DNA of 64,000 nt, taken from contig OZ252225.1 in NCBI GenBank assembly GCA_965249315.1, positions 2,214,814 through 2,278,813 on the forward strand. Reading direction: 5' to 3'. Shown piece after piece: positions 857 through 44,815 of this stretch. The notes beneath the pieces were generated by a model. The model had not been told where the DNA came from and searched no databases. It saw nothing but the letters and a program-made list of their open reading frames with translations. Source of the stretch: Dehalococcoidia bacterium. GTDB taxonomy: Bacteria > Chloroflexota > Dehalococcoidia > Lucifugimonadales > UBA1127. Position 1 is the first letter of the stretch. Each line of letters begins with the position of its first letter. The translations under genes and the position numbers were made by a program.

Positions 857-887
857 CTTCCGTGAGGTAGGGAGCCTCCGCGGTCTA

Positions 888-2081: not shown

Positions 2082-2149
2082 CGCGGATACCTACTCTTCA
2101 CATAACGCGTATTGTTGCCGTTGTAGCGACACCGTTCAGCAGTTTACCA

Positions 2150-2510
2150 CGAACGGTGGAATGGAGCCCCAGTCGCCGGGGGAAATACGGCGGCGGTGCG
2201 TGGACCGGCCCGATCACCGCAAAGCCCATTGCCCGTGCGACGGCCCAACCCCTCGTCGCATCCCCAAGCTAAAGCGGCAAGGCCGCCTCTGCCGCTGGAG
2301 CTCCGATCCAGGGGGAGGCCAGAGGGGTCTCCCCTCTGGCAAGGGGTCTGGGGGATGTGCCCCCAACTAAAAAAACCTCCGAGGGCGGGCGGGTGGGCCC
2401 ACCCAAGGTCTACCGTAGGGAGACCCCCGCATCGCTCTACCTGCCATTCCCCACAAAGGCCCAACCCCTCGCCGCATCCCTAAGCTGAAGCGGCACTGCC
2501 GCCATGTTCC
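2150..2510. repeat. Intergenic mosaic repeat block
   Basis: Palindrome ccagaggggtctcccctctgg (2319-2339), hairpin tgggggatgtgccccca (2349-2365), an A7 tract, palindrome gggtgggcccaccc (2391-2404), and two ccaacccctcg[tc]cgcatccc[ct]aagct[ag]aagcggca modules. Confidence 0.85.
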
Positions 2511-2539
2511 TTGAGGCCTAGAGGCCCCTATGCTAGCAT
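2511..2539 (+). promoter_or_regulatory. Candidate sigma70-type promoter of lepA (TTGAGG-17 nt-TAGCAT)
   Basis: -35 at 2511-2516, 17-nt spacer, -10 at 2534-2539. The ATG at 2548 lies 9 nt after the -10, suggesting a leaderless or near-leaderless mRNA. Confidence 0.35.
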
Positions 2540-4389: not shown

Positions 4390-4415
4390 CTGTCGACTAA
4401 GGGAAAGGACGAGAC

Positions 4416-4634
4416 ATGGTAGCGGTAGTCCGTCTCCTCGTCGTCCTGCTGCTCGTGGGAGTGGGGATCTACCTCTTGCGACACCGCCTGGGCCTCGCGT
4501 CCCCCCATCCTCGGCTCCCGCGGGAGCCCCGGCCCATGCCCTACTGCCGTAAGTGCGAAAGCAACCGCCAGGTCGTCGAGCGTCCATACGAAGGCTTTCG
4601 CTGGTACTGCCAGCGGTGCCGGGAGGCGTTCTAG
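4416..4634 (+). CDS. Small membrane-anchored zinc-ribbon protein (hypothetical)
   Basis: 72 aa with an N-terminal hydrophobic helix, then CRKC...CQRC (two CxxC pairs). An SD-like aaggacgag precedes the ATG. Confidence 0.5.
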   Translation: MVAVVRLLVVLLLVGVGIYLLRHRLGLASPHPRLPREPRPMPYCRKCESNRQVVERPYEGFRWYCQRCREAF

Positions 4635-4639
4635 TCCCA

Positions 4640-4950
4640 GCGCGGGGGCCCAATTCCACCGAAAGCCCCCATCGCTCCTACGAAGAACTAGACCTCGCCG
4701 CAACCCAACGCCGCAAGCAGAAGCGGCACTGCCTCCCGCCTCTCCTGAGGGAGAGGCCGACGCTCAGCGGCGGGTGAGGGCGGACAAGCAGGATAGGTGA
4801 TGCCGCCGCTTAGGGGAGTCCAGAGGGGGCTTCCCCTCTGGCAAGGGGCCTGGGGGATGTGCCCCCAGTTTCTAAAAAACGTCCGAGGGCGGGCGGGTGG
4901 GCCCAACCAACGCACATTCCCCCTCTGGGAGAGGGTTGGGGTGAGGGCAA
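4640..4950. repeat. Intergenic mosaic repeat block
   Basis: A same-orientation copy of the 2319-2404 composite (about 4819-4911), plus aagcagaagcggcactgcc, the hairpin ctctcctgagggagagg, and ccctctgggagagggttggggtgagg. Confidence 0.85.
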
Positions 4951-4952
4951 GT

Positions 4953-5831
4953 TCATCCCTGCCCTGGGTACCCTAGCTCCTTGTTCAACACCTCACGCAC
5001 CTGCGACCCCATCTCCTCCCGCCGCAGGGCCAGCGCCACGGCCGCCTGCAGAAGGCCCACCGGGTTACCGGCGTCGTAGCGCGTGCCGTGCAACCGGTGA
5101 GCGTACATCCCCTGGCTCTCCAACAGCCGCGCCAGGCCGTCCGTCAGCTGGATCTCGCCCCCCGCGCCCGGCTGGACTTGCTCCAGAGCGGCGAACACCT
5201 CGGGCGTGAGCACGTAGCGCCCCACGATTCCCAGGTTGGAGGGCGCCTCGTCGGGAGGGGGCTTCTCCACTAGCCCCAGCACCTGGTACAGGCCCTCCGC
5301 CACCGCCCGCGGTTCGATGGCCCCGTATGCGCTGATGCGCTCCATCGGCACCTCCTCCACGGCCACTACGCTGGCCCGCCGCTCCCGGGCGACGGCCAGG
5401 AGCCTGCCGATGGCCGGGGCGTCGTCCAGAATGAGGTCGTCGGGCAGGAGGACGGCGAAGGGCTCGTCACCGACGGCGTGCCGGGCAGTCAATACGGCGT
5501 TGCCGAGACCGAGCTGCTCCTCCTGGGGGACGGTGCTGAACTCGGCCGCATCCATGAGGCGCTGCACGGGAGCCAGGAGGTGGGAGCGCCCCTTGTCCCG
5601 CAGGAAAGCCTCCAGCTCCGGAGCAGGGGAGAAGTAGTCCGCGAGCGCATCCTTCCCCGGCGACGTCACCAGTATGATGCGGGTTAGCCCCGCCTGGACC
5701 GCCTCCTCCACGATGTAGTGGATCATGGGCCGGTCAACCAGGGGGAGTAGGTTCTTGGGGACGGCCTTGGAGGCGGGAAGCATGCGGGTGCCCCACCCTG
5801 CGGCGGGGATGACGGCGGTCCTGACCTCCAT
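4953..5831 (-). CDS. galU: UTP--glucose-1-phosphate uridylyltransferase
   Basis: The N-terminus AVIPAAGWGTRMLPASKAVPK is the GalU nucleotide-binding signature. I chose the ATG at 5831, which has GGAG 8 nt upstream. Confidence 0.9.
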   Translation of the reverse strand: MEVRTAVIPAAGWGTRMLPASKAVPKNLLPLVDRPMIHYIVEEAVQAGLTRIILVTSPGKDALADYFSPAPELEAFLRDKGRSHLLAPVQRLMDAAEFSTVPQEEQLGLGNAVLTARHAVGDEPFAVLLPDDLILDDAPAIGRLLAVARERRASVVAVEEVPMERISAYGAIEPRAVAEGLYQVLGLVEKPPPDEAPSNLGIVGRYVLTPEVFAALEQVQPGAGGEIQLTDGLARLLESQGMYAHRLHGTRYDAGNPVGLLQAAVALALRREEMGSQVREVLNKELGYPGQG

Positions 5832-6101
5832 TGCTCGACTCCACACGCGTCGCAGATGCACGGGAATTCTACCACGCTCTACCCATTCTCCTTCTGTCCG
5901 GCCTCTCCCTAAGGGAGTCGCCTATGCTAGGGTGGCTGGCCGCCAAGAGCGGCCCAAATCTCACACAGGCTAGGTCGGCTCTGCCGCCTTCCATGCGTGT
6001 GAACAAATGCGGGCGGGGTTGACTGCGGGGGCTGCACGCCGCATTCTATCGGGCGCGAAGAACACCATGAACCTTGGCGAGTTCAGCCCGGAGGGCGGTG
6101 A

Positions 6102-6500
6102 ATGACGAATCGTGATGAGGCGTTGGCCCTGTTGGATGCCTCCTACAACGGCGTCCTGACCACGCTGGCAGCGGATGGACGGCCGATCGGTACACCGGTT
6201 TGGTCTGCGCTCATCGATGGCTACCTGTACATCCGTACGATGACCGACAGCGAGAAAGTGCGCCGCCTGCTGGCCGACCCGCGCTGCTCCTTCGTCGCGG
6301 AGACCGGCATGGCGCTGGAGGACATCCACTACACGCACGTGAGTGCGGAGGCTACCCTCGTGGAGGACCCGGGAGAGCGTTGGATCGCCATTGTCGCCCT
6401 CACCGGGAAATACGGCCCCGAGCCCCTGCCCATGGAGGACCCCGGGCCGGACGTCGTCACTGTGCTGCGCCTCAGCACCGAGCGACTCTTCTACTTTTGA
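6102..6500 (+). CDS. Pyridoxamine 5'-phosphate oxidase-family (PPOX / F420-dependent-like) small protein
   Basis: 132 aa with a pattern typical of the split-barrel PPOX family (GVLTTLAADGRPIGTPVW...YIRT). Confidence 0.75.
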   Translation: MTNRDEALALLDASYNGVLTTLAADGRPIGTPVWSALIDGYLYIRTMTDSEKVRRLLADPRCSFVAETGMALEDIHYTHVSAEATLVEDPGERWIAIVALTGKYGPEPLPMEDPGPDVVTVLRLSTERLFYF

Positions 6501-6689
6501 CCACCGCGCCGCGCAGTTGAGCGGTGGTGTGGGGTCAGCCTCCCCCCTCGGCGGCTGGGAAGGCGCTCCCTGCCTGGCCAACGTCTGCAGGTGCAACCCT
6601 CTTGGGCGCCCCTCCCCAGCTTTGGGTCCAGGGCTTGCCCTAGTTGACACCCTGCGGAGCCTGCCCCTACGATGGTTCGTGGCCGTGCT

Positions 6690-6930
6690 AGATGGGGAGC
6701 TGGCGGTGCCCTGAACCCGCAATCCGCCATAGCGGGGTTGAACTCCTCCCCCAGGTGGGGCGCTTCTGCCGCTGCCGTCGGTCAGGGGTGTGGAAGGCTG
6801 GGTCCCGCGCGACGGTGGCCTGTGAACCCCGCCAGGCCCGGAAGGGAGCAACGGTAAGCAGGGACCCCGGGCGCCGCGGGGACTCCTGGCTGGAGCCCTT
6901 CCCGCCGGTTATGCAGCGGTGTTCCCATCA
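6690..6930 (+). ncRNA. ffs: Signal recognition particle RNA, long form with Alu-like 5' domain (boundaries approximate)
   Basis: The domain IV core CCGCCAGGCCCGGAAGGGAGCAACGGTAAGCAGGGAC has a GGAA tetraloop and AGCA loop. The 5' GGCGGTGCCCTGAACCCGC resembles the Alu-domain helix 3/4 motif. 5' gatgggga pairs with 3' ttcccatc, and long helix-5 complementarity is visible (ggaagg/ccttcc, gtcccgcg/cgcggggac). Confidence 0.75.
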
Positions 6931-6963
6931 AAGGGAGGTGCACGGCCTACTCCCGATGCGCCA

Positions 6964-12438: not shown

Positions 12439-13794
12439 GTGCAGGTTATCCAGGAAGAGCTTCAGCAACGCCAGGCCGTGCTCCACATCGAGGTGGAGTC
12501 CGCGGACCTGGAGCGATATCTGGACCGCGCCCATCGGCGCGTCGTCCAGAGAGTCACCGTCCCGGGCTTCCGCCGGGGAAAGGCGCCCCGTTCCATCGTT
12601 GAGCGCCTTGTGGGTCGGGACGTCCTTCTCGAGGAGGCCTTGGAGCTACTCCTCCCGGAGGTCACGGCCAAGGCAGTGGAGGAGCAGGGCTTGGAGATGG
12701 CGGCGCCTCCGCGGGTCGAGGTTGTGTCCCGCGAGCCCATGGCGCTCCGCGCTACGGTCCCGCTGCCGCCGGAGGTGACGCTGGGCGACTACCGCCAGGT
12801 CAGGATCGCTCCGGAAGAGGTGGAGGTGGACGAAGAACGGGTGGCGGAAACCCTGGAGGAGATTCGGCGGGAGACCACGCCATGGGAGCCGGTCGACCGG
12901 CCCGTCTCCATGGGAGACCAGCTGGTGATGGACCTTCGAGGGTCCACCGAAGGCCGTGAGCTCATCAGCCAGCGGAACTTCGGGTACATCGTCTCCGAGG
13001 AGCCCAGTCCCGTCCCCGGGTTCGGTGCTGCCCTAGAAGGGATGCAGCAGGGCGAGACCCGGGAGTTCACCCTTCCCTTCCCCGATGACTACAGCGACGC
13101 GGAGTTGGCGGGAAAACCCTGCGAGTTCGTCGTTGAGGCCAAGGAGATCAAGGGCCGGGAGCTTCCCGACATGGACGACGAGTTCGCTCGGAGCGTCGGC
13201 CAGGGGTACGACTCGCTGGAGGCTCTCAGGGAGGACGTTCGCGGCCGGCTGCGAGCCTCCCTGGAGGCCGAGGCCCACGGTCGCTACGAGGAGAAAGTGC
13301 TGGAGGAAGTGCTGGCAACTGCCCAGATCGAGATGGCCCCGCTGCTGGTCGAGCGGGAGACGGAGCGCCTCCAGCAGGAGCTTCGGGACCGCGTGCAGAG
13401 CCTGGTGCGGGGGCCCGTGGGCGTGGACGAGTATATGTCCCTCCTGGGCAAGACGGCGGAGGAGGTCCAGGAAGAGCTTCGCCCCAGGGCGGAGATGCGG
13501 CTGCAGCGCTCGGCGCTTCTGAATAGCGTCGCCGACGCAGAAGGTTGCGAGGCCTCGGACGAGGCTGTGAATGCGGAGATCGAGGGCATGGTCCAAGAGG
13601 CAGGGCCTCGAGGCAGAGAGGTCCGGCGGCACTTCTCCAACGCCCAACATCGGGAGATGGTGGCCAGGAGCCTGCGGACGCGCAAGGCCCTGGAGCTTCT
13701 GGTGACGATCGCCAGGGGCGAAGAGGGCCAAGAGGAAGCCGCGTCTAGCGAGGAGACGGCGTCGGCGCCTTCCGGAGACGAGTCATCGGCCTAG
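12439..13794 (+). CDS. tig: Trigger factor
   Basis: 451 aa. The ribosome-binding motif PGFRRGKAP, a central PPIase-like region and an acidic C-tail match trigger factor architecture. Confidence 0.9.
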   Translation: MQVIQEELQQRQAVLHIEVESADLERYLDRAHRRVVQRVTVPGFRRGKAPRSIVERLVGRDVLLEEALELLLPEVTAKAVEEQGLEMAAPPRVEVVSREPMALRATVPLPPEVTLGDYRQVRIAPEEVEVDEERVAETLEEIRRETTPWEPVDRPVSMGDQLVMDLRGSTEGRELISQRNFGYIVSEEPSPVPGFGAALEGMQQGETREFTLPFPDDYSDAELAGKPCEFVVEAKEIKGRELPDMDDEFARSVGQGYDSLEALREDVRGRLRASLEAEAHGRYEEKVLEEVLATAQIEMAPLLVERETERLQQELRDRVQSLVRGPVGVDEYMSLLGKTAEEVQEELRPRAEMRLQRSALLNSVADAEGCEASDEAVNAEIEGMVQEAGPRGREVRRHFSNAQHREMVARSLRTRKALELLVTIARGEEGQEEAASSEETASAPSGDESSA

Positions 13795-17799: not shown

Positions 17800-18245
17800 A
17801 GGGCGGCCGCGCAATACGAATGATCGTGCCTGTCCAGGCACGGAGGGAGAAGAGACGAATGCGCCGGCAGGCACGGAACGGAAAATCGGGGTGCGGACAC
17901 GGCTCGTAGCTGAGGGGCGGGGAGACGCGAGGGAACGAAAGCGTAGCAGTCCCAGGCACGGGCAGGTGGAAACGAATGGCGCGGCAGGCACGGAGAAATG
18001 CGGGGGAGGGGCGGGCAAGCGAAAGCGTAGCAGTCCCAGGCACGAACGGGGTGGAAATGAATGGCGCGGCAGCGGCCAGCCGCGTAAGCTTGGGGGCGTT
18101 GCTCTGGAGCGGGGGTTGGTCCTTCGAAGTGGGATGGCACCTTGCGGTGGACGGGGCGGCGTGCCGCTCTTGGTTGCGGCGTTGGGAGCGGCGGAGGGTG
18201 GTCCTTCGTAGGGGCGGGGGAGACGGCATCAGGGCGTAGCTCATC
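17800..18245. repeat. Intergenic mosaic repeat block including an approximately 84-bp tandem array
   Basis: cgaaagcgtagcagtcccaggcacg occurs at 17936-17960 and 18020-18044. gaaacgaatggcgcggcaggcacgga-like units lie near 17853, 17968 and 18052. Module gttgctctggagcgggggttggtccttcgaagtggg is at 18098-18137. Confidence 0.85.
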
Positions 18246-18246
18246 G

Positions 18247-18540
18247 TCACGAACGGCGAAGGCGGTCTTTGAGCTGCGTGAGCTCGATGGTGACCTGCAG
18301 CATGAAGAAGACGATGCGGAGGTTGGTCTTAGGGTCGTCGAGGAGCTCCTCTATGGAGAGGCCAGGGGGTGCAAAGGGGTCCCTGAGACCGTACGACCTC
18401 AGCAGTTTCACCAGCGGAGCATGGCGGTCTACGGGCTTGAGGCCGGAGTAGCGGCCGTGCTTCCGGGCGTTCTGGTTGCCGCGTTGACCGCCTCGAGGGC
18501 GGTTTTCTGGCTTGCGGGCGGGCGGGTGGGGAGAGTCCAT
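18247..18540 (-). CDS. Hypothetical small basic protein (GNQNARKHG motif)
   Basis: 97-aa ORF with non-repetitive composition but no obvious SD. It is bracketed by 40-nt direct repeats (18098-18137 and 18624-18663). Confidence 0.4.
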   Translation of the reverse strand: MDSPHPPARKPENRPRGGQRGNQNARKHGRYSGLKPVDRHAPLVKLLRSYGLRDPFAPPGLSIEELLDDPKTNLRIVFFMLQVTIELTQLKDRLRRS

Positions 18541-18544
18541 AGCG

Positions 18545-18835
18545 ACAGGGTAGGGCGTGGGAAGGGTTGGGGGAAGGGGCAGGTGGCAGCAGGCCAGGCG
18601 GCACTGCCGCTCTTGCTGGGGATGTTGCTCTGGGGCTGGGATTGGTCCTTCGAAGTGGGGTGGGAGCCTGCGTGGGTCGGTGAGATAAGGTTTCCCCTCC
18701 CCGCCTCTCCACGCCGCCGCATTTTCCCGCCCAGCCCGCCCTGGGGTTTTCTTCTTGGGGGGCTAGCGCCCCCCGGACCCCCGCTGGGTGCTGTCTGGGA
18801 GCTGTTGCCGTTGGGAAGGCGGGATGAAAGGCTGG
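18545..18835. repeat. Intergenic mosaic repeat block
   Basis: Contains the 40-nt repeat 18624-18663 (36/40 identical to 18098-18137). Also contains the module ...cgcattttcccgcccagcccgccctggggttttcttcttggggggctagcgccccccgg, related to copies near 28380, 43470 and 44530. Confidence 0.8.
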
Positions 18836-25545: not shown

Positions 25546-26115
25546 CTAGGAGACGGTGGAGACGTAGTCGCCGGTGCGGGTGTCGACGCGGACAGTCTGG
25601 CCGATCGTGATGTGCATGGGGACCTTGACCTGGGCGCCGGTGGAGAGGGTGGCGGGCTTTCGGCCGGAGGAGGCAGTGTCGCCCTTGAAGGCAGGCGGGG
25701 TGTCCACGATCTCCAGATCCACGGTCGTAGGTAGCTCGACGCTGACGGCCTGGCCCTGGTAGTAGACCAGGCTTATGGTGTCGCCCTCGGTGAGGAACTT
25801 GGACTGCTCGGCCAGCTCGTCGGCGGCAAGGGGGAACTGGTCGTAGGTCTCGGTGTCCATGAAGTAGAAGCTCTGGCCGTCGTTGTAGAGGTACTGGGCC
25901 TGACGGTTGTCGATGTCGGCGAGGGTGAGGCGCTGGTTGCCGGGGAGGTTGCGCTCGAAGGTCTTGCCGGAGCGGAGCTGGCGCAGCTTCAGGGTGAGGG
26001 CCGGCGTTCGCTGCTGCATGGCGACGTGCTTGTACTCGATGACGGCGAAGGCGTCGCCCTCAAGCTCGATGATGGTGCCCCTTCGCAGGTCGCTGTAGGT
26101 GATGGTGCCAGCCAC
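25546..26115 (-). CDS. efp: Elongation factor P
   Basis: 189 aa with an EF-P N-terminus (SDLRRGTIIELEGDAFAVIEYKHVAMQQR) and a VDLEIVDTPPAFKGDTAS block. Confidence 0.95.
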   Translation of the reverse strand: MAGTITYSDLRRGTIIELEGDAFAVIEYKHVAMQQRTPALTLKLRQLRSGKTFERNLPGNQRLTLADIDNRQAQYLYNDGQSFYFMDTETYDQFPLAADELAEQSKFLTEGDTISLVYYQGQAVSVELPTTVDLEIVDTPPAFKGDTASSGRKPATLSTGAQVKVPMHITIGQTVRVDTRTGDYVSTVS

Positions 26116-26126
26116 GCGGTCCTCCT

Positions 26127-27200
26127 CTAGCGGGGGTCTTCCCGCTTGTGGGCCTTGGTCAGGGTGCGGGCGCGCCCGTTCTCCAGAACGACGATGTCCT
26201 CGATGCGGACGCCACCCCAGCCGGGGATGTATATGCCGGGCTCGATGGTGAAGACTGCGCCGTCCAGGAGGGTGTTCCCCGCCCGAGGGCCGACGCGTGG
26301 GTCTTCGTGGACGGCGAGGCCGATGCCGTGGCCGAGGCTGTGGCCGAACTTGTCGCCGTGGCCGGCCTTCTCGATGATGCTGCGAGCGAGGCCGTCCGCC
26401 TGCTCGCCGGTCATCTGTGCTTCGACGGTGGCGGAGGCGGCCATCTGTGCGCCGAGGACCGTGTCGTAGACGGTGCGGAAGGTCTCATCGGGCCGGCCGA
26501 TGCAGACGGTGCGGGTGATGTCGCTGCAGTAGCCCTGGTACTTTGCGCCGAAGTCCATGACGACAGGCTGGCCCTCGAGGATGGGGGTGTCGTCGGCGCG
26601 GTGGTGGGCCATAGCGCCGTTGGGCCCTGCGGCGACAATGATGTCGAAGGCGAGGGCCTCTGCGCCGCCCTCGCGCATGGCCATCTCCAAACGCCAGGCG
26701 ACGGACTGCTCCGTGTCGCCGACCTCGATGGTGGGGGCGACCTCCTCGAAGGCGCGGTCGGAGATTTCGACGGCGCGGGTGATGAGGGCGAGCTCGTCAA
26801 GATCCTTGATGGCCCGCTGAGGCTCGACGAGCTCGGTGGTGGCGGTGAGCTCGACGCCGTTACCGGCGTCCTTCAGGGACTTCACGAGGGCGGCGTGCCC
26901 AGCGACGGTCATGTGTGCGCTCTCGAAGCCGAGCTTGCGCATACCCAACTCCTTCGCCAGGGGCGGGAGCCACCCGGCGGCAGCGATTCGCACGACGCGG
27001 AAGTCGGGGGCCTGGTTCGCCGCCTGCTCGGTGTAGCGGAAGTCGGTGGCCAGGACGGCGTCGGCCTGGGTGACGAGGAGGTTGCCGGCGGAGCCGGTGA
27101 AGCCGGAGAGGTAGCGTCGGTTTTCGGGCGCGGTTATCAGCATGCCGTCCAGCGCCTGCTCCTGGAGGACGGCTCGCAGGGCGTCAAGGCGTGCGCTCAT
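26127..27200 (-). CDS. pepP: Xaa-Pro aminopeptidase (M24B)
   Basis: Creatinase-like N-domain plus M24 metal ligands (VMDFGAKYQGYCSDITRT, HSLGHGIGLAVHE, FTIEPGIY, VRIEDIV). Confidence 0.9.
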   Translation of the reverse strand: MSARLDALRAVLQEQALDGMLITAPENRRYLSGFTGSAGNLLVTQADAVLATDFRYTEQAANQAPDFRVVRIAAAGWLPPLAKELGMRKLGFESAHMTVAGHAALVKSLKDAGNGVELTATTELVEPQRAIKDLDELALITRAVEISDRAFEEVAPTIEVGDTEQSVAWRLEMAMREGGAEALAFDIIVAAGPNGAMAHHRADDTPILEGQPVVMDFGAKYQGYCSDITRTVCIGRPDETFRTVYDTVLGAQMAASATVEAQMTGEQADGLARSIIEKAGHGDKFGHSLGHGIGLAVHEDPRVGPRAGNTLLDGAVFTIEPGIYIPGWGGVRIEDIVVLENGRARTLTKAHKREDPR

Positions 27201-27658
27201 GCGCTTCCCCCTTCGTCGTCACGTCGGGCTGCCAGGTACTCGAGGGCGTAGAGGTAGCTGCGCCAGCCCATTCCGGCGACCTGGCCGACGGCGATGGGGG
27301 CGATGACGGAGCGGGACCGCCAGGACTCCCGACCGGCGATGTTGGAGAGGTGGACCTCCACAACGGGAAGGCGGGTGTCCGCGAGGGCGTCCCGGAGGGA
27401 GAGGCCGTAGGAGGTGAGTGCGCCGGGGTTGATGATGACGCCCGCGGCGTCTGCGCTGCGCTCCTGAAGGCAGTCTATGAGTGCGCCCTCACTGTTGGAC
27501 TGGAAGCAGTGGACCTCCAGGCCGAGGTCAGCGGCGCGCCGGCGGAGGCGATCCTCGATCTCGGCGAGGGTGACGGTGCCGTAGTGGGCGGGGTCCCTCT
27601 GGCCGAGCCGGTTGAGGTTGGGACCGTTGATGACGAGGATGCGGGCGCTATCTGCCAT
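27197..27658 (-). CDS. aroQ: 3-dehydroquinate dehydratase, type II
   Basis: ILVINGPNLNRLGQRDPAHYG, FQSNSEGALID, IINPGALT and EVHLSNI are canonical type II DHQase motifs. Confidence 0.95.
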   Translation of the reverse strand: MADSARILVINGPNLNRLGQRDPAHYGTVTLAEIEDRLRRRAADLGLEVHCFQSNSEGALIDCLQERSADAAGVIINPGALTSYGLSLRDALADTRLPVVEVHLSNIAGRESWRSRSVIAPIAVGQVAGMGWRSYLYALEYLAARRDDEGGSA

Positions 27659-27699: not shown

Positions 27700-28560
27700 C
27701 ACTGCGTGACAGCAAGGTCACTGCGTGACGGCAAAGGCAGGGCAGGCCCTGCACCCACACCTTGCGGCAGCAGGGCTACGGCGGGGGTTGGGTTTGAATT
27801 GAGCTGAATGGTGTGCGCGCGATTTTCCGGCGGCCCGTGCCTGAGGAAACGCGGCGCAGCTTGGGTTTGAGGCGCGATGGACAAGTCGACAAAGGGAAAC
27901 AAGGCGTATCTGCCAGGCACGGGCCGGACGGGGGGCCGAGGGCCCCGCTGGGGGGTGTCGGAAAAGTCGACAAAGGGGGACAAGTCGTATCTGCGGGTCG
28001 CGGCGTCGTAGGGGGGCCGACGGCGACGCGGGGGGATCGCCGCAAACCGACAAAGGGAAACAAGGCAGGGCAAGGCGGGGGAGGTGTGGGCCCTTCGACA
28101 AGCTCAGGGTGAGCGGGAGGCGCGTGCGGGTGGGCATGGGGGTAGGGTAGGGGATGGGGGGGCGAGGGGATAGGGGGAGGTGGCACAGCACCAGGCAGGG
28201 CAGGCCCTGCACCCTCAGGCGGCCAGGCAGGGCACGCCCTGCACCCACAGGCGGCCAGCCGCGCAAGCTTGGGGAGGTGGGTTGCGCTGGGGGGTTGGGC
28301 CTGCGGAGGGGCGATGGAGGGTTGCGGTCGTTGGGGGGGCATAAGGTTGCCCCGCTCCGCCCCTCGCCCCACCGTCGCTTTTCCCGGCGGCGGTGCCGCC
28401 CTAGCATGAGCCCGCCCTGGGATTTTCTTGGGGCGCCCCCCGGAGCCCTGCGCTGGGGACCTTCCCCGCCCCTGGGTCCCGGCTCGGAGGCCGGAATGAC
28501 GGGTAGTAGGTGAGAGGGCTTCCCTGAGAGAGGGGGCGGTGACCAACTCCGCGAGTGCCC
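27700..28560. repeat. Large intergenic mosaic repeat block including an approximately 81-bp tandem array
   Basis: Tandem units start at 27885, 27966 and 28048 (gtcgacaaaggg[ag]aacaag[gt]cgtatctgc...). Also present: ggcagggcaggccctgcaccc modules at about 27736 and 28195, cccttcgacaagctcagggtgagcgg at 28091-28116, and a ccgcccctgggtcccggctcggaggccggaatgacg module near 28455. Confidence 0.85.
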
Positions 28561-28595
28561 TGATGACCAGTTACACCGGAGGTTGGGCGAATACC

Positions 28596-28624
28596 TTGAT
28601 ACTGTGAGGGTTAGAAGCTAGCAT
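28596..28624 (+). promoter_or_regulatory. Candidate promoter of the two-gene islet cassette (TTGATA-17 nt-TAGCAT)
   Basis: -35 at 28596-28601, 17-nt spacer, -10 at 28619-28624. It would give a 5' UTR of about 150 nt before the start at 28784/28787. Confidence 0.4.
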
Positions 28625-28783
28625 TGGTATCGCGACATGTCAGCGAGGCAAGGGCATGCTGGCAACAGCCGGACCTAGTTACGATGGCAACCTATGTGGT
28701 CGGCACCTGGCTCCTCGCTCTTATTGAAAATCGCTACAGATTACCCGAGGCTGCAGGCCAATTGATCGAGCGGAGGTGTTACT

Positions 28784-29506
28784 GTGATGAGGGATACGGA
28801 CCAGTTGGTCATCAAAGCAGTTGAGAATCACTATCAGGAAGAAGATTCTCCTTACTACTTGGCCGAACTTGGCAAGCTCTTCCGCGAGAAGGACATTGAC
28901 ATACCAGAGGGAGTCCGGTTTAAGGATTATCTAAGGAGTCGCTTTCACGGGAGTCTTGTTATCGTACAAGACGACCATACTCCGGCAAGAATAGCAGTTG
29001 CGACCCTCGACAAAGAAGCGAGCGTTCGTCAACAGCTCTCTGGTCAGCTCCCGCCCGTGCCCGGTGATTCTGGATTAGACCACATGCGTTTTCCCTTTTC
29101 CCTTATTGCTGCCTTTTGCAAGATTCCACTACCAAACACGCAAGTGTACTTCCGAATTACAAGACCTTTCCGATACGTTACCTTTATGGACGCACCCGAT
29201 GACAACAACTACGTGGCTATCGACGATAAATTTCGCCCCCCAAAATTGGCTGGGAAGTCAGTGCACGGATTATCCGATTCTGACAAAGGGCTGCTTTACA
29301 AGTGCATTGAGGAATGGGCGGAAGCAAACTCGGTCGATCTTCGACAGCTGTACTATGATCGCGCTGCTCTGCCAGCAGTAGCGAGAGCACAGTCAGGAAC
29401 AAGACGCAATGCGCTCCAGCGGTTGATCGACGCTCAAGACCCAGACCTGAAGGGGCGAATCAAGATTCCAGGGGATATCGCAAGCGTGCTCATGGATGTC
29501 GCATAG
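28784..29506 (+). CDS. Hypothetical protein A of islet cassette; N-terminal region resembles an OST-HTH/LOTUS-like winged helix
   Basis: 240-aa ORF with GGAGG upstream and a GTG-ATG start at 28784/28787. The composition is non-repetitive and AT-richer. YYLAELGKLFREKDIDIPEGVRFKDYLRSRF..LVIVQD resembles the OST-HTH pattern (resemblance only). I recognise no catalytic motif. Confidence 0.7.
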   Translation: MMRDTDQLVIKAVENHYQEEDSPYYLAELGKLFREKDIDIPEGVRFKDYLRSRFHGSLVIVQDDHTPARIAVATLDKEASVRQQLSGQLPPVPGDSGLDHMRFPFSLIAAFCKIPLPNTQVYFRITRPFRYVTFMDAPDDNNYVAIDDKFRPPKLAGKSVHGLSDSDKGLLYKCIEEWAEANSVDLRQLYYDRAALPAVARAQSGTRRNALQRLIDAQDPDLKGRIKIPGDIASVLMDVA

Positions 29507-30488
29507 GCGAATGCCTGGCAAGCTAGCCCGTCATTTGAGGAGATCGGAACACCAACAGCGGGATAACTTAGTCGTCCTTACCGGCCTTCCTCGAGATACT
29601 CTGAAGTGGACGATGCGTAGGCTCCATGGAGACACCTCCAGAAGGCCGGCAAGATATGTTGGCGCCCCCTCGACTCGGAGTCGCTCGCGTAACCTCTACA
29701 GCAAGGCCAGCATAGCGGAAACGTTGACGCTAATCGAGCGTGAGTGTCAACGCTATACTCCGCACCGAATTATGGTGCTCTATGTTCCGTCTGCGGACTC
29801 AGCAAATCTAGTTGAGGCCCTTGGATTTGTTTGCTTTCTTGCACCCTTGTGCCCAGGAACAAGCGACGATGGAGCTTTGGCGGCGCATTGGAGACATACA
29901 GTCTCTGAAGTGACGAGCGTAGTGTACGAGACTTTAAGTCGCGCACTGAAGACTACAAATGCCCTAAAGGCAGAGATTACTGACAGGAGAATCAGCCCCT
30001 TCACACTGCCAGCGCGTAATTTCTACTATCCCCACAGTCGTTCCACGATTGGTCTCGCCTATCAGGCATTCATCGCAAACGGATTTGATACGCAGCATCT
30101 AAAGAGTAAGTTGGAGCCGTCCAGGTTTACAAGGGGCCAGCTTCCACAAGGAGCATTCAAAGGCCAGCAGTACGCAGACTCTTTCTTTCAAGATCTTCGT
30201 GAGAGAGTATTCCCTCCTGATCTTCATCATGCGAGGTCAAGGCCTTTGAAGGAGGTTACCGGCCCCACTCTTTCTTTGGAATTACAACAGCGATTTCGCT
30301 TTGGAGTGATGGTCCGGGATGGTAACTTGCACTACGACATGCAGTATGAGCTGCCAAGGAGATTGGCGGATGAACCAATGTACTGTGCGATGGAAGGGGA
30401 GGTATCCGTAACTGCTTCACATGCGAATGTTGGTGTTAATGATGTCGTATGGGTTCCCAGTGGCAGGAAAGACCGCAGAAAAAAGTAG
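29496..30488 (+). CDS. Hypothetical protein B of islet cassette (Arg-rich N-terminus, basic C-tail), no recognisable domain
   Basis: 330-aa ORF. Its ATG at 29496 overlaps the gene A stop by 11 nt (ATGTCGCATAG), and an alternative ATG lies at 29511. It shares the AT-richer composition. I can assign no family motif. Confidence 0.7.
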   Translation: MSHRRMPGKLARHLRRSEHQQRDNLVVLTGLPRDTLKWTMRRLHGDTSRRPARYVGAPSTRSRSRNLYSKASIAETLTLIERECQRYTPHRIMVLYVPSADSANLVEALGFVCFLAPLCPGTSDDGALAAHWRHTVSEVTSVVYETLSRALKTTNALKAEITDRRISPFTLPARNFYYPHSRSTIGLAYQAFIANGFDTQHLKSKLEPSRFTRGQLPQGAFKGQQYADSFFQDLRERVFPPDLHHARSRPLKEVTGPTLSLELQQRFRFGVMVRDGNLHYDMQYELPRRLADEPMYCAMEGEVSVTASHANVGVNDVVWVPSGRKDRRKK

Positions 30489-30510
30489 GCGCAACAAAGA
30501 ATGTTGCGCC
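30479..30510 (-). terminator. Intrinsic terminator (GGCGCAAC-7 nt-GTTGCGCC + T6 on minus strand); abuts gene B stop codon
   Basis: 8-bp perfect stem at 30488-30495/30503-30510. The minus strand continues tacTTTTTTct (T-tract 30479-30484). On the plus strand the hairpin starts at the last base of gene B's TAG (30486-30488) but lacks a U-tract. Confidence 0.7.
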
Positions 30511-30715
30511 AATAAAGATCCATGTAGCCAACACAAATGGTGAGAGGTGTGTCACTCAGGCGGCTTGCCTACGAACCGTAGGCAACATCAACCGTCGGCC
30601 ACTTTTCGTTTGACCTAGGCTGAAGGTCCCACCGGATCGCCGTACACTCTTGGCGCCCCTCCCGGCAAATCAGATCCACCAGGTCGGCGCGAGTGGCCTC
30701 TTCGCTCTATCGGCT
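30480..30715 (-). ncRNA. Candidate small RNA of about 235 nt, convergent with the islet cassette
   Basis: Bounded by the near-consensus promoter at 30722-30750 and the intrinsic terminator at 30479-30510. It contains an 8-bp hairpin TTGCCTAC-ggttc-GTAGGCAA. The only ORFs I found reading it (10 and 36 codons) lack an SD. Confidence 0.45.
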
Positions 30716-30721
30716 AAGGGC

Positions 30722-30750
30722 ATTATACAGTTGATGTATGCGATTTTCAA
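30722..30750 (-). promoter_or_regulatory. Near-consensus sigma70 promoter on minus strand (TTGAAA-17 nt-TATAAT)
   Basis: The reverse complement of 30721-30760 reads agggcaccgtTTGAAAatcgcatacatcaactgTATAATg. The predicted TSS is near A30715. Confidence 0.65.
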
Positions 30751-30805
30751 ACGGTGCCCTACCCACAACTACGGGATGTCAAACACTTCAAGCTACTACC
30801 TCAGG

Positions 30806-30834
30806 TTGACAGGGGGGGTGGGTGTGGCTATGCT
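30806..30834 (+). promoter_or_regulatory. Promoter of the aroG leader (TTGACA-17 nt-TATGCT)
   Basis: A perfect -35 TTGACA at 30806-30811, a 17-nt spacer, and a -10 TATGCT at 30829-30834. Confidence 0.6.
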
Positions 30835-30843
30835 GGCGGGGTT

Positions 30844-30942
30844 GTGACGAAGGTGGAGAGGGTCCGGCAGTACTATTACTCCTACTTTAGCGGCGCGCGG
30901 TGGCGCGTCGGTGAGGTCTTGACGCTCCACGTCCACACGTAG
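30844..30942 (+). CDS. Candidate aromatic-rich leader peptide (..VRQYYYSYFSGARW..) of DAHP synthase attenuator
   Basis: GTG at 30844 (or 30853) to TAG at 30940-30942. Codons TAC TAT TAC TCC TAC TTT span 30871-30888. This is the only frame with a start codon inside the predicted transcript. Confidence 0.5.
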   Translation: MTKVERVRQYYYSYFSGARWRVGEVLTLHVHT

Positions 30943-30968
30943 ACCAGCCAGACAAGAGGAACGCTCGA

Positions 30969-30998
30969 GACCCCGACCGGCAGCGGTTGGGGTCTTTT
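30969..30998 (+). terminator. Attenuator terminator in the aroG leader
   Basis: 11-bp stem (30969-30979 with 30984-30994, one G-U), GCAG tetraloop, then TTTT at 30995-30998, 19 nt before the aroG ATG. The alternative antiterminator pairs 30907-30919 with 30968-30977. Confidence 0.65.
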
Positions 30999-31016
30999 CA
31001 TGAAAGGGAGGTCAGC

Positions 31017-32102: not shown

Positions 32103-32414
32103 ATGACCTACTCCGCCACCAAGTCGGACAAGGACCCCTGCGTGTACATCCTCGCCAGCAAGAGAAACGGAACGCTGTACACCGGCGTTACCTCGAACCT
32201 TGTACAGCGTGTGTGGCAGCACCGGAACGCATTCGTAGCAGGGTTTACCCGTCAGTATGGAGTCCAGCGCCTCGTTTGGTATGAGATGCATCCGACTATG
32301 GAGAGCGCGATTACGCGAGAAAAACAGCTCAAGGGATGGCGTCGGAGATGGAAGGTCCGGCTGGTGGAGGAGATGAACCGCGACTGGGCGGACTTGTACC
32401 CGCAGCTGGGCTGA
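32103..32414 (+). CDS. Small stand-alone GIY-YIG nuclease-family protein (UPF0213-like)
   Basis: 103 aa: CVYILASKRNGTLYTGVTSNLVQRVWQH...REKQLKGW. Confidence 0.85.
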   Translation: MTYSATKSDKDPCVYILASKRNGTLYTGVTSNLVQRVWQHRNAFVAGFTRQYGVQRLVWYEMHPTMESAITREKQLKGWRRRWKVRLVEEMNRDWADLYPQLG

Positions 32415-32720
32415 GTGCCTTGGTCGCCTCCCCGCCCCTGGGTTCCGGCCTCCGCCGGAACGACGAGGTAAAGGGGCCCTCATCCCAACCCTCTCCCAGA
32501 GGGATGTGGGGTGCTTGGTTGGGCCCACCCCTCGATTGTTGTTTTGTGACTGGGGGCGCAGCCCCCAGACCCTGGCGCCCTCACCCGCCGCTGCGCGTCG
32601 GCCTCTCCCCCAGGAGAGGCGGGCGGCATCGCCGCGTAAGCTCTCCCCGCCGCGCCACGCCGCCGACGCTGATGCGTCATCCTCACCCCTGCCCTCTCCG
32701 AGAAGGGGGAGCGGGCGCTG
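32415..32720. repeat. Intergenic mosaic repeat block
   Basis: Contains modules ccgcccctgggttccggcctccgccggaacgacg, tcatcccaaccctctcccagaggg, gggcccaccc...tgactgggggcgcagccccca, cggcctctcccccaggagaggcgg and cacccctgccctctcc..gggggag. Confidence 0.8.
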
Positions 32721-36779: not shown

Positions 36780-36935
36780 ACGCCTGGGTTCCAGCCTTCG
36801 ATGGAACGACGGAACTCGCCCACCCCTCTACGGAACGGGGGTACGCTCTCACCCCTGCCCTCTCCCCGGGGAGAGGGCAGGGGGACCCTTTGACGGGCTC
36901 AGGGTGATGGTTCGACAGGCTCACCATGAGCGGCG
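36780..36935. repeat. Intergenic mosaic repeat block
   Basis: Contains the hairpin cacccctgccctctccccggggagagggcagggg and a doubled, degenerate copy of the cccttcgacaagctcagggtgagcgg module (36886-36933). Confidence 0.75.
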
Positions 36936-40409: not shown

Positions 40410-40740
40410 CGCGGGCGCTTTTGCTTGGAGAGGTGGGGAATCGGGGGTTGGTTGGGCCCACCCGCCCACCCTCGGAAGTTTTTTGGTAACTGGGGGCACA
40501 TCCCCCAGAGCGGCTCGCCGCCCCAGAAGGAGGGGAGGCCCCTCTGGACTCCCCTGTGCCGAGCGCTACGCGCCGTTGGGTTCCGGCCAGCGCCGAATAC
40601 GGCAATGGTGCGGTGTTGGGGCGGGGCGTTGTTTGGAGACGGGACGCGTCGAGGTTCCCCTGTCTTCGCAGGAACGATTGCCCTTCGACAAGCTCAGGGT
40701 GAGCGGCCCCTTTCACTAGCAAAGGCGGAGGGGATAAGAT
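40410..40740. repeat. Intergenic mosaic repeat block
   Basis: Contains gggcccacccgcccaccctcggaagttttttggtaactgggggcacatccccca (a reverse-orientation copy of the 2319-2404 module) and cccttcgacaagctcagggtgagcgg at 40681-40706. Confidence 0.85.
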
Positions 40741-40746
40741 AAGGCC

Positions 40747-42830
<2,084 letters not shown>

Positions 42831-42834
<4 letters not shown>

Positions 42835-43061
42835 GAGTCGGAGGCGGGGCGCTGGCGGCGCAGCCACTCCTGAAGGCGTTCGTCGTTGCGGGGCTGGAAG
42901 ATGGAGCCCTCCCCGGGGAGGTCCATGAAGCGGGGGTCCGGCCTGGCAGGGCGTCGCAGCAGGTGGGACAGAAGGGGCAGGGTGGCCAGGCCGCCCACGG
43001 CCATGGCGAGCGTGCCCATGACGCGGCGCCGGGTGAATCGCATGTCGTCGCGTTTGTCCAT
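42831..43061 (-). CDS. Small hypothetical protein with twin-arginine-like signal
   Basis: 76 aa with [23 protein letters not shown] and an SD-like gggggaag upstream. Confidence 0.4.
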
Positions 43062-43129
43062 TCGGCGCTTCCCCCGTTGGTCCTGCTGTTTGCTCGTGTG
43101 ATTCTAGAAGAAATGGTGGGGAGCTGCAA

Positions 43130-43860
43130 GGCGGCAGGGCTTGCCCTGCACCCTCAGCTTGCGGCGTCGGGCTGTGGCGGAGTTTGTTCCTGTCGTATGG
43201 ACGATGGAGGCGGAGTGGTTGGGAGAGTTTCCCTACGGTAGACGTTGGCTGGGCCCACCCGCCCACCCTCGGAGGTTTTTTTGTAACTGGGGGCACATCC
43301 CCCAGGCCCCTTGCCAGAGGGGTCTCCCCTCTGGCTCCCCTTTGACGAGGGATTCGCGCCGGAAAGGCGGCAGGGCAAGCCCTGCATTTTCAGTTTGCGG
43401 CGTTGGGCTGTGGAGCGGTCTGGAGGATTTCCCTACGGTAGACGTTGGGTGGGCCCACCCGCCCGGCGGCAGAGCCGCTCTAGCTCCCCCCGCGCGGCCC
43501 CGCACCGGAGTTTTTTCTTCGGGGAGCTGCGCCCCCATACCCCCGCGGGGGAGACCTCACCGCGCCACCCCTGGGTTCTGGCCTTCGCCGGAACGACGAA
43601 GGGGGTCGCAGGGGCGACGGCCCTTCGACAAGCTCAGGGTGAGCGGTCCACGCACCCGGCGCGATGCGGCGGCATTGCCGCTCCAACCTGCCCCGCCTCC
43701 CCACCCGCCGCTCAGGCCCTTCGACAAGCTCAGGGTGAGCGGTCGTCTCACGCGGCGCTATAACTGTCGACCTCTCCCCCAGAAGAGGCGGCAGGGCAAG
43801 CCCTGCACCCTTAGCTTTCGGGCGTTGGGCTGTGGCGGAGGCTGGGGGCAGGGGGACGTT
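43130..43860. repeat. Large intergenic mosaic repeat block
   Basis: Three ggcagggca[ag]gccctgca... modules (about 43133, 43368 and 43788). Two tccctacggtagacgttgg+gggcccacccgccc modules (about 43220 and 43430). Two cccttcgacaagctcagggtgagcgg copies (43621-43646 and 43717-43742). One ccacccctgggttctggccttcgccggaacgacg. Confidence 0.9.
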
Positions 43861-43865
43861 TGTGG

Positions 43866-44372
43866 CTATTCGTCCAAGAGGGGGTTGATGCCTCGGACGT
43901 TGATGCCGTAGTCGAAGACCAGGTCTCCGCCTGTCAGACCGGACATGAACAAGAGGCCCGCGCCAGCGAAGACGACGACCAGAAACGGGACGGACGCTCC
44001 GCAATCCGATCCTCTTTGACGGGAGATGAAACGCCAGACGGTAACTGCAATGAAGAGTGCGGTCACCCCGAAGCTCCAGAACTGATGTGTCTCAATGATG
44101 TCATGCAGGTCCGTCTCCTCGTACGGGAAGTGAGAGACCAGCCCGGAGACTGTAGCGGCGATGGCGCCTAGAGTCCCGAGTACGAGCAGCAGCCATGTGG
44201 TCTGAAGCATCCCGGATTTGGGCCGGAGAACCACGTAGAGTGTCAGGGCTGCGAGCAGTACCAAGAGAGCAATCGGAAAGTGGACGATGATGGAATGGAG
44301 GTCTTCGATGGTGTCGGAGATGAGCTTTTCCAAGCCGTCCCCCAGTTCGTTGTGATGAGGCAGCGATGGCAC
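43866..44372 (-). CDS. DUF2231-like membrane protein
   Basis: 168 aa with four TM segments. The IVHFPIALLV motif near the first TM and the C-terminal GGDLVFDYG are typical of DUF2231. Confidence 0.7.
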   Translation of the reverse strand: MPSLPHHNELGDGLEKLISDTIEDLHSIIVHFPIALLVLLAALTLYVVLRPKSGMLQTTWLLLVLGTLGAIAATVSGLVSHFPYEETDLHDIIETHQFWSFGVTALFIAVTVWRFISRQRGSDCGASVPFLVVVFAGAGLLFMSGLTGGDLVFDYGINVRGINPLLDE

Positions 44373-44399
44373 TGCTCGCTATGGTACAACGCAGAGGAG

Positions 44400-44815
44400 C
44401 GGAAGGGGATAGGAGGGGGTCTATGAAAGCGGGACTGTGGCGGATGGAGGAGAGAGGGGGTGTCCCTACGATGCCACCTTAGTTGGGCCCACCCACCCGC
44501 CCGGCGGCAGTGCCGCCCTAGCTCTCGCCGCCTCCCCGCACCGCCGTCGCATTGCCCGCCCACCCCCCTGATATTTTTCTGTTGGGGGGCTGCGCTCCCC
44601 CAGACCCCCGCGTGGGGTGCGCCCATCCCCGCTACCCCTGGATTCCGGCCTGCGCCGGAACGACCCTGCGCCGGAACGACGACCCTTCGACAGGCTAAGG
44701 GTGAGCGGAATCAAGATGGAGGGTGTCCGCTCACTCGCCGCTGCGCGGCGGCCTCTCCCCAAGGAGAGGCGAGATGGGCTGGAAGAGGGCGGTTATAGCC
44801 GCGCAAACTCTTGAC
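44400..44815. repeat. Intergenic mosaic repeat block
   Basis: Contains gggcccacccacccgcccggcggcagtgccgccctagc..., a duplicated ctggattccggcctgcgccggaacgac, cccttcgacaggctaagggtgagcgg at 44683-44708, and the hairpin gcggcctctccccaaggagaggcg. Confidence 0.85.

Follow-up and report, generated by a model that had tools for sequence, protein, structure and literature searches.

What does an islet of low G+C, set between the shikimate-pathway genes aroQ and aroG and holding two genes without a recognised family, encode? The islet lies in a stretch of 64,000 nucleotides (nt) from a Dehalococcoidia bacterium (contig OZ252225.1, positions 2,214,814 to 2,278,813; hereafter the window). It is a horizontally transferred, self-contained cassette of three co-inherited parts: gene A, gene B and a convergently transcribed unit that is predicted to be a structured RNA. 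As the initial annotation had reported, the G+C content of this tract is lower than that of its surroundings (0.49-0.56 across 28600-30800 vs. 0.64-0.74 on either side), and the contrast is sharper still at third codon positions (GC3), with values of 0.52-0.53 in A and B and 0.86-0.93 in the flanking genes. The left flank is aroQ (27197-27658, minus strand; Pfam DHquinase_II, E=6e-53) and the right flank is the gene for DAHP synthase (30987/31017-32084; Pfam E=9e-83). From left to right, the islet comprises the following features:

28560-28786, no strand: left part of the islet, not conserved, containing a promoter candidate at 28596-28624
28787-29506, plus strand: gene A, 239 amino acids (aa), with an alternative start at GTG 28784
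29496-30488, plus strand: gene B, 330 aa, with an alternative start at ATG 29511
30510-30479, minus strand: putative intrinsic terminator of the RNA, with a hairpin at 30510-30488 and a U-tract at 30484-30479
30716-30511, minus strand: predicted RNA body, with a multi-helix core at 30706-30547 and the closing helices P0 and P1
30750-30722, minus strand: putative sigma-70-type RNA promoter, with a -35 element TTGAAA (30750-30745), a 17-nt spacer and a -10 element TATAAT (30727-30722), matching the consensus at 11 of 12 positions
30751-30805, no strand: right border of the islet, where a spacer separates the RNA promoter from that of aroG

The anatomy of this cassette is established with near certainty: A and B are adjacent and under purifying selection, and B is followed by an RNA whose covarying structure, strand and non-coding nature can all be read from the alignments. 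The expectation that A and B travel together is confirmed, as a homolog of A lies directly upstream of a homolog of B on the same strand in every locus that was fetched, 13 from the close family and 4 distant ones. The overlap of stop and start that was first noticed between the two reading frames is present, with the TAG of A (29504-29506) overlapped by the ATG of B at 29496. However, B may in truth start at ATG 29511 (MPGK...), 4 nt past the stop of A, which is favoured because the N-termini of homologs and the start in the closest relative, locus L005, align there. The two genes are tightly linked under either start; in other loci they lie close together (1-nt overlap up to a 6-nt gap) or stand 39-51 nt apart. 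Measured against L005, A has a ratio of non-synonymous to synonymous divergence (dN/dS) of 0.21 and B one of 0.20, and values of about 0.2 indicate that both are protein-coding genes under purifying selection. Homologs of A fall into approximately 100 clusters and close homologs of B into 80, none of which carries a Pfam domain or a name in its source. In an exhaustive profile search, B turned out to belong to a superfamily with 211 representatives (50% clustering), the majority of which are full-length proteins of 300-350 aa. Matches in GTDB were exclusively metagenome-assembled genomes (MAGs) of Dehalococcoidia, a single-sequence scan of genome contigs returned no match, and B had no match in a phage collection.

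The third part of the cassette is the convergent unit at 30480-30750, whose promoter and terminator had been proposed from the start and were recovered by a consensus scan. It is predicted to be a structured non-coding RNA of about 235 nt, running on the minus strand from about 30716 to 30479. The RNA lies directly after B in all 13 distinct loci of the family (nhmmer E 1e-13 to 1e-59), and outside L005 it is still recovered at E 1e-13 to 1e-39 in loci whose B proteins are only 41-63% identical. Its core of approximately 165 nt aligns well among the 13 distinct copies, always on the strand opposite B, and a covariance model (R1) built for it scores 156 bits at 30706-30547 on the minus strand and finds one copy per close-family locus. 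Each of the 13 copies has an equivalent promoter, TTGACA-16/19-TAnAAT, whose distance to the core is fixed at 28-31 nt, and a terminator abuts the stop of B in 12 of 13. In the window, the last base of the terminator hairpin is the G of the TAG stop of B. This terminator is 100% identical in L005, and elsewhere its hairpin covaries, from GGCGCAAC/GTTGCGCC to AGGGCGC/GCGCCCT. Comparison with the closest relative shows the limits of the element: the 270 nt 3' of the B stop are 87% identical to L005, identity falls to 44% beyond the minus-strand -35 element, and with the aroG promoter it is back at 100%. Relative to the copy in the window, RNA cores are 60-86% and B genes 63-74% identical in DNA, and because these ranges are similar, the RNA can be said to co-evolve with the genes as opposed to being hyper-conserved. 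The RNA motif was absent from viral contigs, and pattern matches in metagenomes (L017-L020) were dismissed as chance, since they have neither an A nor a B homolog nor a match to the covariance model.

The structure of the RNA is supported by compensatory change. RNAalifold gives 9 helices with 47 pairs, of which 16 show compensatory double changes; 95.4% of the alignment cells in these helices can pair, as opposed to 32-46% when the partners are slid by 1-3 columns, and the slid controls yield 4-7 compensatory pairs. The observed values were reached in none of 500 shuffles. Two helices, P0 and P1, form between the 5' arm (30716 to about 30694) and the 3' linker (about 30552-30525) in 13 of 13 copies and are thereby predicted to close the fold. 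P0 (AGCCGA/UUGGCU) covaries to AGUCAA/UUGACU and to AGCUGA/UCAGCU, and P1 reads GAUGnAGAGG/CCUCUCAUC. The fold also contains invariant single-stranded blocks, while variation is confined to hairpin loops and short linkers. Its strand is fixed by G·U pairs together with the orientation of promoter and terminator, as there are 73 G·U cells on the convergent strand compared to 5 on the opposite one, and pairing drops from 95.4% to 84.2% when the opposite strand is read. A small protein in this region was rejected because each frame is interrupted by stops in most copies and indel lengths do not keep to multiples of three, and a tRNA-like element was likewise set aside, as ARAGORN found no match. 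No family in Rfam 15 matched the RNA at the gathering threshold, and a permissive scan of 30400-30850 gave only sub-threshold, terminator-like matches.

The position of the terminator has a consequence for protein B. The U-tract of the RNA is antisense to the final Lys codons of B, and the basic C-terminal tail of the protein is explained by this arrangement, because the coding DNA there is the complement of the terminator U-tract.

The initial annotation had assigned neither protein to a family, and this holds: no housekeeping family, or any other, was matched by A or B in Pfam, NCBIfam, PHROGs or PADLOC (version 2.0 library, which was used for the defence comparison and covers systems described up to 2023), and the PDB sequence profiles gave no match for B and only a weak one to the Ku80 C-terminal domain for A (E 0.013). 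The same is true of 34 members of the A family in Pfam and PADLOC, and for 53 diverse members of the B superfamily neither Pfam nor PADLOC gave a signal, even with the threshold relaxed to E<=10. A signal to DUF6877 was discarded as a 20-residue match below threshold, and P0215 is an artefact in the form of a translated tandem repeat. A search with the A profile found no informative domain fusions.

Protein A has a winged helix at its N-terminus (residues ~1-84), an alpha/beta domain in the middle (~104-190) and a conserved helical tail at the C-terminus (~197-239), and its AlphaFold2 model has a predicted local distance difference test score (pLDDT) of 82. An OST-HTH/LOTUS-like pattern had been proposed for its N-terminus. 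The winged helix stands, and the LOTUS domain of TDRD7 (3rco) ranks among its top fold matches. Approximately 75 N-terminal residues superpose on that domain with a template modelling (TM) score of 0.52, a root-mean-square deviation of 3.8 Å and 20% identity, yet the Foldseek E of 0.69 is non-significant and the winged helices of MarR/PadR proteins and histone H1 match A equally well. Pfam OST-HTH (PF12872) gave no match at E<=1 for A and none at E<=10 across 34 homologs. The resemblance to OST-HTH/LOTUS proteins such as TDRD7 and MARF1 consists of this superposition and of an RNA partner encoded alongside; RNA binding by LOTUS domains has been reported (PMC7498356).

In its AlphaFold2 model (pLDDT 83, predicted TM score 0.84), protein B has a Rossmann-like domain at the N-terminus (~24-117), followed by a long helix (136-163), and its C-terminal half is rich in beta structure. 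Searched in full length with Foldseek against PDB and BFVD, it returned only generic Rossmann-like matches (best E 0.019, TM 0.23). Across the superfamily, D233, R268-F-G270, D281 and D316 are invariant and H245, Q283, C297 and N311 nearly so, and the invariant residues lie mostly within the C-terminal half. These conserved residues are the sole feature that suggests an enzyme-like protein. No reverse transcriptase domain was found, the only such signal being a chance-level match to RT_UG37 (E=0.04, 9.9 bits).

The foreign origin of the cassette can be seen in more than its composition. In L005, which shares the insertion site, the flanking genes are 96-99% identical to those of the window in DNA, with synonymous divergence (dS) of 0.04-0.12, while A and B have a dS of 0.37-0.50, 4-6 times that of the flanks. 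With a GC3 of 0.52 against approximately 0.9 around it, the composition is foreign as first proposed. The raised dS of A and B may reflect allelic replacement by recombination or a relaxed constraint on composition. Close relatives carrying the genes with native composition would have spoken against a foreign origin; L005 does have both genes at this site, but there too their composition is foreign, and their dS exceeds that of the flanks. The DAHP synthase of the window belongs to a cluster at >=90% that spans 17 contigs, including ones of 2.35, 2.09, 1.01 and 0.33 Mb. Homolog searches found neither an A nor a B homolog on these contigs, which suggests indirectly that the cassette is missing from the majority of close relatives. 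Terminal inverted repeats, tandem repeats and a recombinase of its own were not found in the cassette, nor was a tandem array found within 28400-30900.

Upstream of A, only 28749-28799 can be aligned with L005 and nothing with the other loci, and the sole portion of the left islet that belongs to the conserved cassette is about 40 nt with the ribosome-binding site of A. The promoter candidate proposed there, TTGATA-17-TAGCAT at 28596-28624, does exist as a site with 9 of 12 consensus matches, but it is not kept even in L005. The spacer at the right border is similarly variable, being 44% identical to L005 compared to 90-100% in the adjoining elements on both sides.

The surroundings of the close-family loci differ completely from one another and are mostly of the mobile-element or defence type, in keeping with the variable, defence-associated contexts that had been anticipated:

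L005: the same aroQ/aroG site as the window
L006: transposases and Fic_N
L007 and L008: a HEPN(PaREP1)/MNT pair and a type II methyltransferase-HNH
L010: the complete PADLOC candidate system PDC-M33 (E 3e-77, 7e-37 and 2e-21) and a DndB-like gene
L021: integrase, Mrr/NOV_C, methylases, HerA/mad8 and Vsr
L023: transposases and HSDR_N
L024: integrases, DDE_5, PDDEXK_4 and DUF433
L009 and L022: mostly housekeeping genes

Counted over nine independent annotated close-family sites, defence or toxin-antitoxin-type genes are present at seven and integrases or transposases at five. On the 5-Mb contig of L010, the PDC-M33 genes (A, B and C) and the DndB-like gene occupy 447-6682, about 550 nt upstream of the cassette.

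More distant relatives of the gene pair occur on plasmids and in other bacterial groups:

L011: a Rhodospirillaceae MAG in which a 144-aa protein is encoded ahead of a B-like gene (~24-27% identity), with a PIN/MazE pair nearby
L014: a metagenomic contig with an A-B pair adjoining RepC and a resolvase
L015: IncF plasmids of Klebsiella, Enterobacter and E. coli with a pair of 135 aa and 295 aa (WP_023304028 and WP_023304027)
L016: Sphingobium plasmid pTK1 with a full-length A homolog (E=1.8e-14) overlapping a B homolog, adjoining AbiEii, an integrase and MobF

Proteins encoded next to distant B-like genes retain both the N-terminal domain of A and its C-tail; the 144-aa protein of L011, for example, has the winged-helix domain of A (hhalign E=3.7e-15) followed by its C-terminal tail. 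In the enterobacterial pair, WP_023304027 is a full-length member of the B superfamily (E=1.4e-13) and its partner WP_023304028 shows weak similarity to A (E 0.022). This pair is found on approximately 850-1000 contigs, mostly Klebsiella plasmids, and is always labelled "hypothetical". On the E. coli plasmid NZ_CP019904.1 (L015, 6063-13022) it lies between IS3 (ISKpn38) and IS110 elements beside a Gabija system (GajA E=0, GajB E=1e-251). PADLOC has no model that matches these distant relatives of A and B. Neither WP_023304028 nor WP_023304027 is mentioned in the openly searchable literature or in the supplementary data of one large preprint on defence prediction, and no description of such a module of A, B and RNA was found in the openly searchable literature. 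An equivalent RNA in the distant modules is suggested by several features: 300-500 nt of unannotated DNA follow the B-like gene, a strong hairpin sits on the stop codon in two of three modules (L011 and L015), L015 has a weak convergent promoter within its unit bounded by insertion sequences (IS), and folding of the convergent strand of three downstream regions gives z values of -3.1, -4.0 and -5.1.

How might the three parts work together? The initial annotation saw in the islet a toxin-antitoxin or anti-phage module, an interpretation that is partly supported. We tentatively favour a ribonucleoprotein module of toxin-antitoxin-like or defence type, in which the RNA binds and controls B, although the chance that this is correct falls somewhat short of even. 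The RNA would be made constitutively and would bind A, B or both directly. The winged-helix (LOTUS-like) domain of A would be the likely binder of RNA or another nucleic acid, and its conserved C-tail the likely contact with B. Bound RNA would hold B, the presumed effector enzyme with its conserved Asp, His, Arg and Cys residues, inactive or poised, and B would be freed once phage infection, shut-off of transcription or loss of the element had removed or displaced the RNA. This proposal draws on the defence and mobile-element neighbourhoods, where the genes encountered include PDC-M33 with the DndB-like gene, HerA/mad8, MTase-HNH, HEPN/MNT, Gabija, AbiEii, PIN/MazE, Mrr, Vsr and HSDR_N. A role in addiction is considered because the minimal cassette persists without mobility genes of its own. 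There is also a precedent: in AbiF/RCd22, the Abi toxin is neutralised by a structured RNA that binds it directly (PMC12373285).

Several points weigh against this proposal. Toxicity, defence and RNA-protein binding are inferred from sequence and context, and the catalysis predicted for B is read solely from conserved residues. At the level of families the toxin-antitoxin or anti-phage assignment is not supported, since A and B match no known toxin, antitoxin or defence protein in PADLOC or the other libraries searched, and the similarity of A to LOTUS domains is non-significant. The layout differs from that of every known RNA-antitoxin system, in which the RNA lies upstream on the same strand or forms tandem repeats. 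Two of the nine independent close-family sites, the window included, are plain housekeeping neighbourhoods, and a search of the distant modules L011-L016 with covariance model R1 brought up no homologous RNA.

These housekeeping sites bring up the first alternative, namely that the cassette is an accessory module outside defence, such as an RNA processing or repair system, a regulator resembling Ro/Y RNA or OLE ribonucleoproteins, or a device for plasmid maintenance or replication control. Dedicated RNAs with dedicated proteins are the pattern of non-defence ribonucleoproteins too, the contexts at the window and L005, L009 and L022 are of the housekeeping kind, and some members of the superfamily adjoin RepC and a resolvase or MobF on plasmids. 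This alternative is nevertheless unlikely in light of the patchy, single-copy distribution and foreign composition of the cassette, the defence, toxin-antitoxin or mobile-element genes at seven of nine close-family and four of four distant sites, and the lack of any TROVE, Rtc, Rep or Par domain.

A second possibility is that B, with A, is an RNA-dependent enzyme for which the RNA serves as guide, template or cofactor. Orphan RNAs found beside mobile genes have before proved to be guides, as with HEARO/IscB, the omega RNAs of IS605-orfB/TnpB and the IS110 bridge RNA. The cassette shares with these elements, and with the msr-msd of retrons, a structured RNA that always adjoins a specific mobile protein gene. 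The link between the RNA and the gene pair is strictly one-to-one, the two diverge at similar rates, the fold is compact, closed and scaffold-like, and B has conserved acidic and His residues. The differences are considerable, however. The RNA contains no guide segment of the long hypervariable kind, it matches neither HEARO nor IS605-orfB in Rfam, and it is convergent to B as opposed to co-directional. B has no RuvC, HNH, DEDD or reverse transcriptase domain or any other Pfam match, and the cassette has no terminal inverted repeats or other element ends. The absence of a reverse transcriptase domain anywhere in the cassette also sets it apart from retrons and defence-associated reverse transcriptases (DRT). 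An RNA-dependent enzyme is rather improbable.

Equally improbable is an antisense mechanism like that of type I toxin-antitoxin systems, in which the A-B mRNA would read through the hairpin and the RNA would pair with its 3' extension, affecting stability or causing transcriptional interference. Antisense antitoxins that overlap at the 3' end are known from type I loci of Gram-positive bacteria, par/Fst RNAI-RNAII and txpA/RatA being examples. As in those convergent loci, the small RNA here is convergently transcribed and shares its terminator hairpin, at the stop of B, with the protein-coding transcript. The plus strand has no T-run after this hairpin, and the mRNA and the RNA could overlap only through read-through past it. 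Nonetheless, a perfect cis-antisense RNA would have no need of a conserved multi-helix fold, while the fold found here is elaborate, is supported by 16 compensatory pairs and contains single-stranded blocks that do not vary. Comparison with the start regions of A and B at nine loci revealed no significant or conserved duplex (z about 0). A small hydrophobic toxin of less than 60 aa is missing as well, B being a soluble, globular protein of 330 aa with two domains and not a small membrane peptide, and the RNA region has no conserved small reading frame. RNA-protein logic is preferred over antisense logic because of the elaborate conserved fold, the invariant single-stranded blocks and the missing start-region complementarity. 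The first interpretation of the convergent RNA as a regulator or antitoxin thus survives insofar as the RNA is an integral, conserved and structured part of the module, while the simple antisense-antitoxin model is left unsupported by the start-region comparison.

That the islet is decaying foreign DNA with chance reading frames, promoter and terminator has a negligible probability, for although low G+C alone can yield promoter-like hexamers (a mean of 1.6 in shuffles), the dN/dS of 0.2 in both genes, the approximately 100 (A) and 80 (B) homolog clusters, the covariation of the RNA, and the promoter and terminator kept in 12-13 of 13 copies led to the rejection of a non-functional remnant.

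The ribonucleoprotein module favoured here can be set beside the systems it comes closest to. With the type III toxin-antitoxin systems (ToxIN, AbiQ/antiQ and CptIN) and AbiF/RCd22 it shares a mobile, defence-associated protein and a dedicated structured RNA made constitutively; action by direct binding to protein, as opposed to antisense pairing, has been shown for AbiF/RCd22 and is proposed here. Type III systems have a tandem RNA array upstream on the same strand, whereas this cassette has no such array but a single-copy RNA downstream of, and convergent to, B. There is no toxin of the ToxN/AbiQ family and no Abi_2/HEPN toxin, B having no match in Pfam, PADLOC or PDB. The RNA is not the abiF motif, and the winged-helix protein A is an additional component relative to AbiF/RCd22. 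The resemblance of the cassette to type III toxin-antitoxin systems and to AbiF is confined to the logic. AbiE (AbiEi/AbiEii) offers a different parallel, as a two-gene mobile operon with an upstream protein of ~240 aa, consisting of an N-terminal winged helix and a C-terminus that faces its partner, and a larger, enzyme-like second protein; one relative of the cassette (L016) even lies beside a true AbiEii gene. However, no match to AbiEi or AbiEii/DUF1814 was found in A, B or the 53 and 34 members of their families. AbiE is not known to have an RNA component. In composition and architecture the cassette appears to be new, judged by the openly searchable literature and by defence systems described up to 2023; its function is a matter of inference. 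It may represent a class of mobile ribonucleoproteins for immunity or addiction that has not been described before, with a new RNA family, two new protein families that always travel as a pair, and the RNA as an obligatory subunit (antitoxin, sensor or cofactor) of a new effector enzyme, a proposition that is plausible but not yet probable.

Several further observations concern the neighbourhood of the islet. Its left border (27731-28311) is indeed a repeat block, as had been noted, and consists of dispersed repeats resembling repetitive extragenic palindromes (REP), but it is not clearly the largest block of the window, since the cluster at ~43100-44800 is comparable or at least as large. The G+C-rich dispersed REP-like families (D2, D3, D4, D6, D10 and others) are intergenic and occur at 27731-28311, 18072-18680, 36884-36930 and 40447-44771. 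On the left, efp, a pepP-like gene (M24 peptidase) and aroQ form a tight minus-strand cluster (25546-27658) with 4-nt gene overlaps, and their proteins are 97.5-100% identical to the L005 counterparts. On the right, the region before the DAHP synthase gene (30806-31016) is a candidate aromatic-amino-acid attenuator. It comprises a promoter (TTGACA-17-TATGCT, 30806-30834), a leader reading frame ending at 30942 that encodes ...RQYYYSYFSGARWR..., and a terminator-like hairpin (30977-30990) with a T-run immediately before the start codon; the promoter is 100% and the leader 94% identical in L005. Directly after the DAHP synthase gene follows a stand-alone GIY-YIG gene (32103-32414, 103 aa, Pfam E=1.4e-17), which has a G+C of 0.58, below that of its neighbours, and is conserved in L005. 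Downstream of this reading frame, a 45-nt unit (32422-32466) is present in a single copy in the window, and its L005 counterpart (12833-13437) is a tandem array of ~12 copies with a 51-bp period. The only Rfam family at the gathering threshold in the window is the bacterial large signal recognition particle (SRP) RNA (RF01854, 162 bits) at 6683-6945.

For annotation, these results mean that the "intergenic" 270 nt after B are actually a gene and that the basic tail of B is a by-product of its terminator. If the interpretation favoured here is true, the cassette would add a new family of structured RNA, two new protein folds or families and a new RNA-containing defence or toxin-antitoxin architecture. 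Earlier RNAs of unknown function beside mobile genes, such as the omega RNAs, the bridge RNA and the retron non-coding RNA, proved to be mechanistically rich. On this reading, the superfamily of protein pairs would also reach conjugative plasmids in clinical strains of Klebsiella, Enterobacter and E. coli, and the enterobacterial plasmid pairs beside Gabija make the proposed function directly testable in E. coli and relevant to the plasmid biology of clinical isolates.

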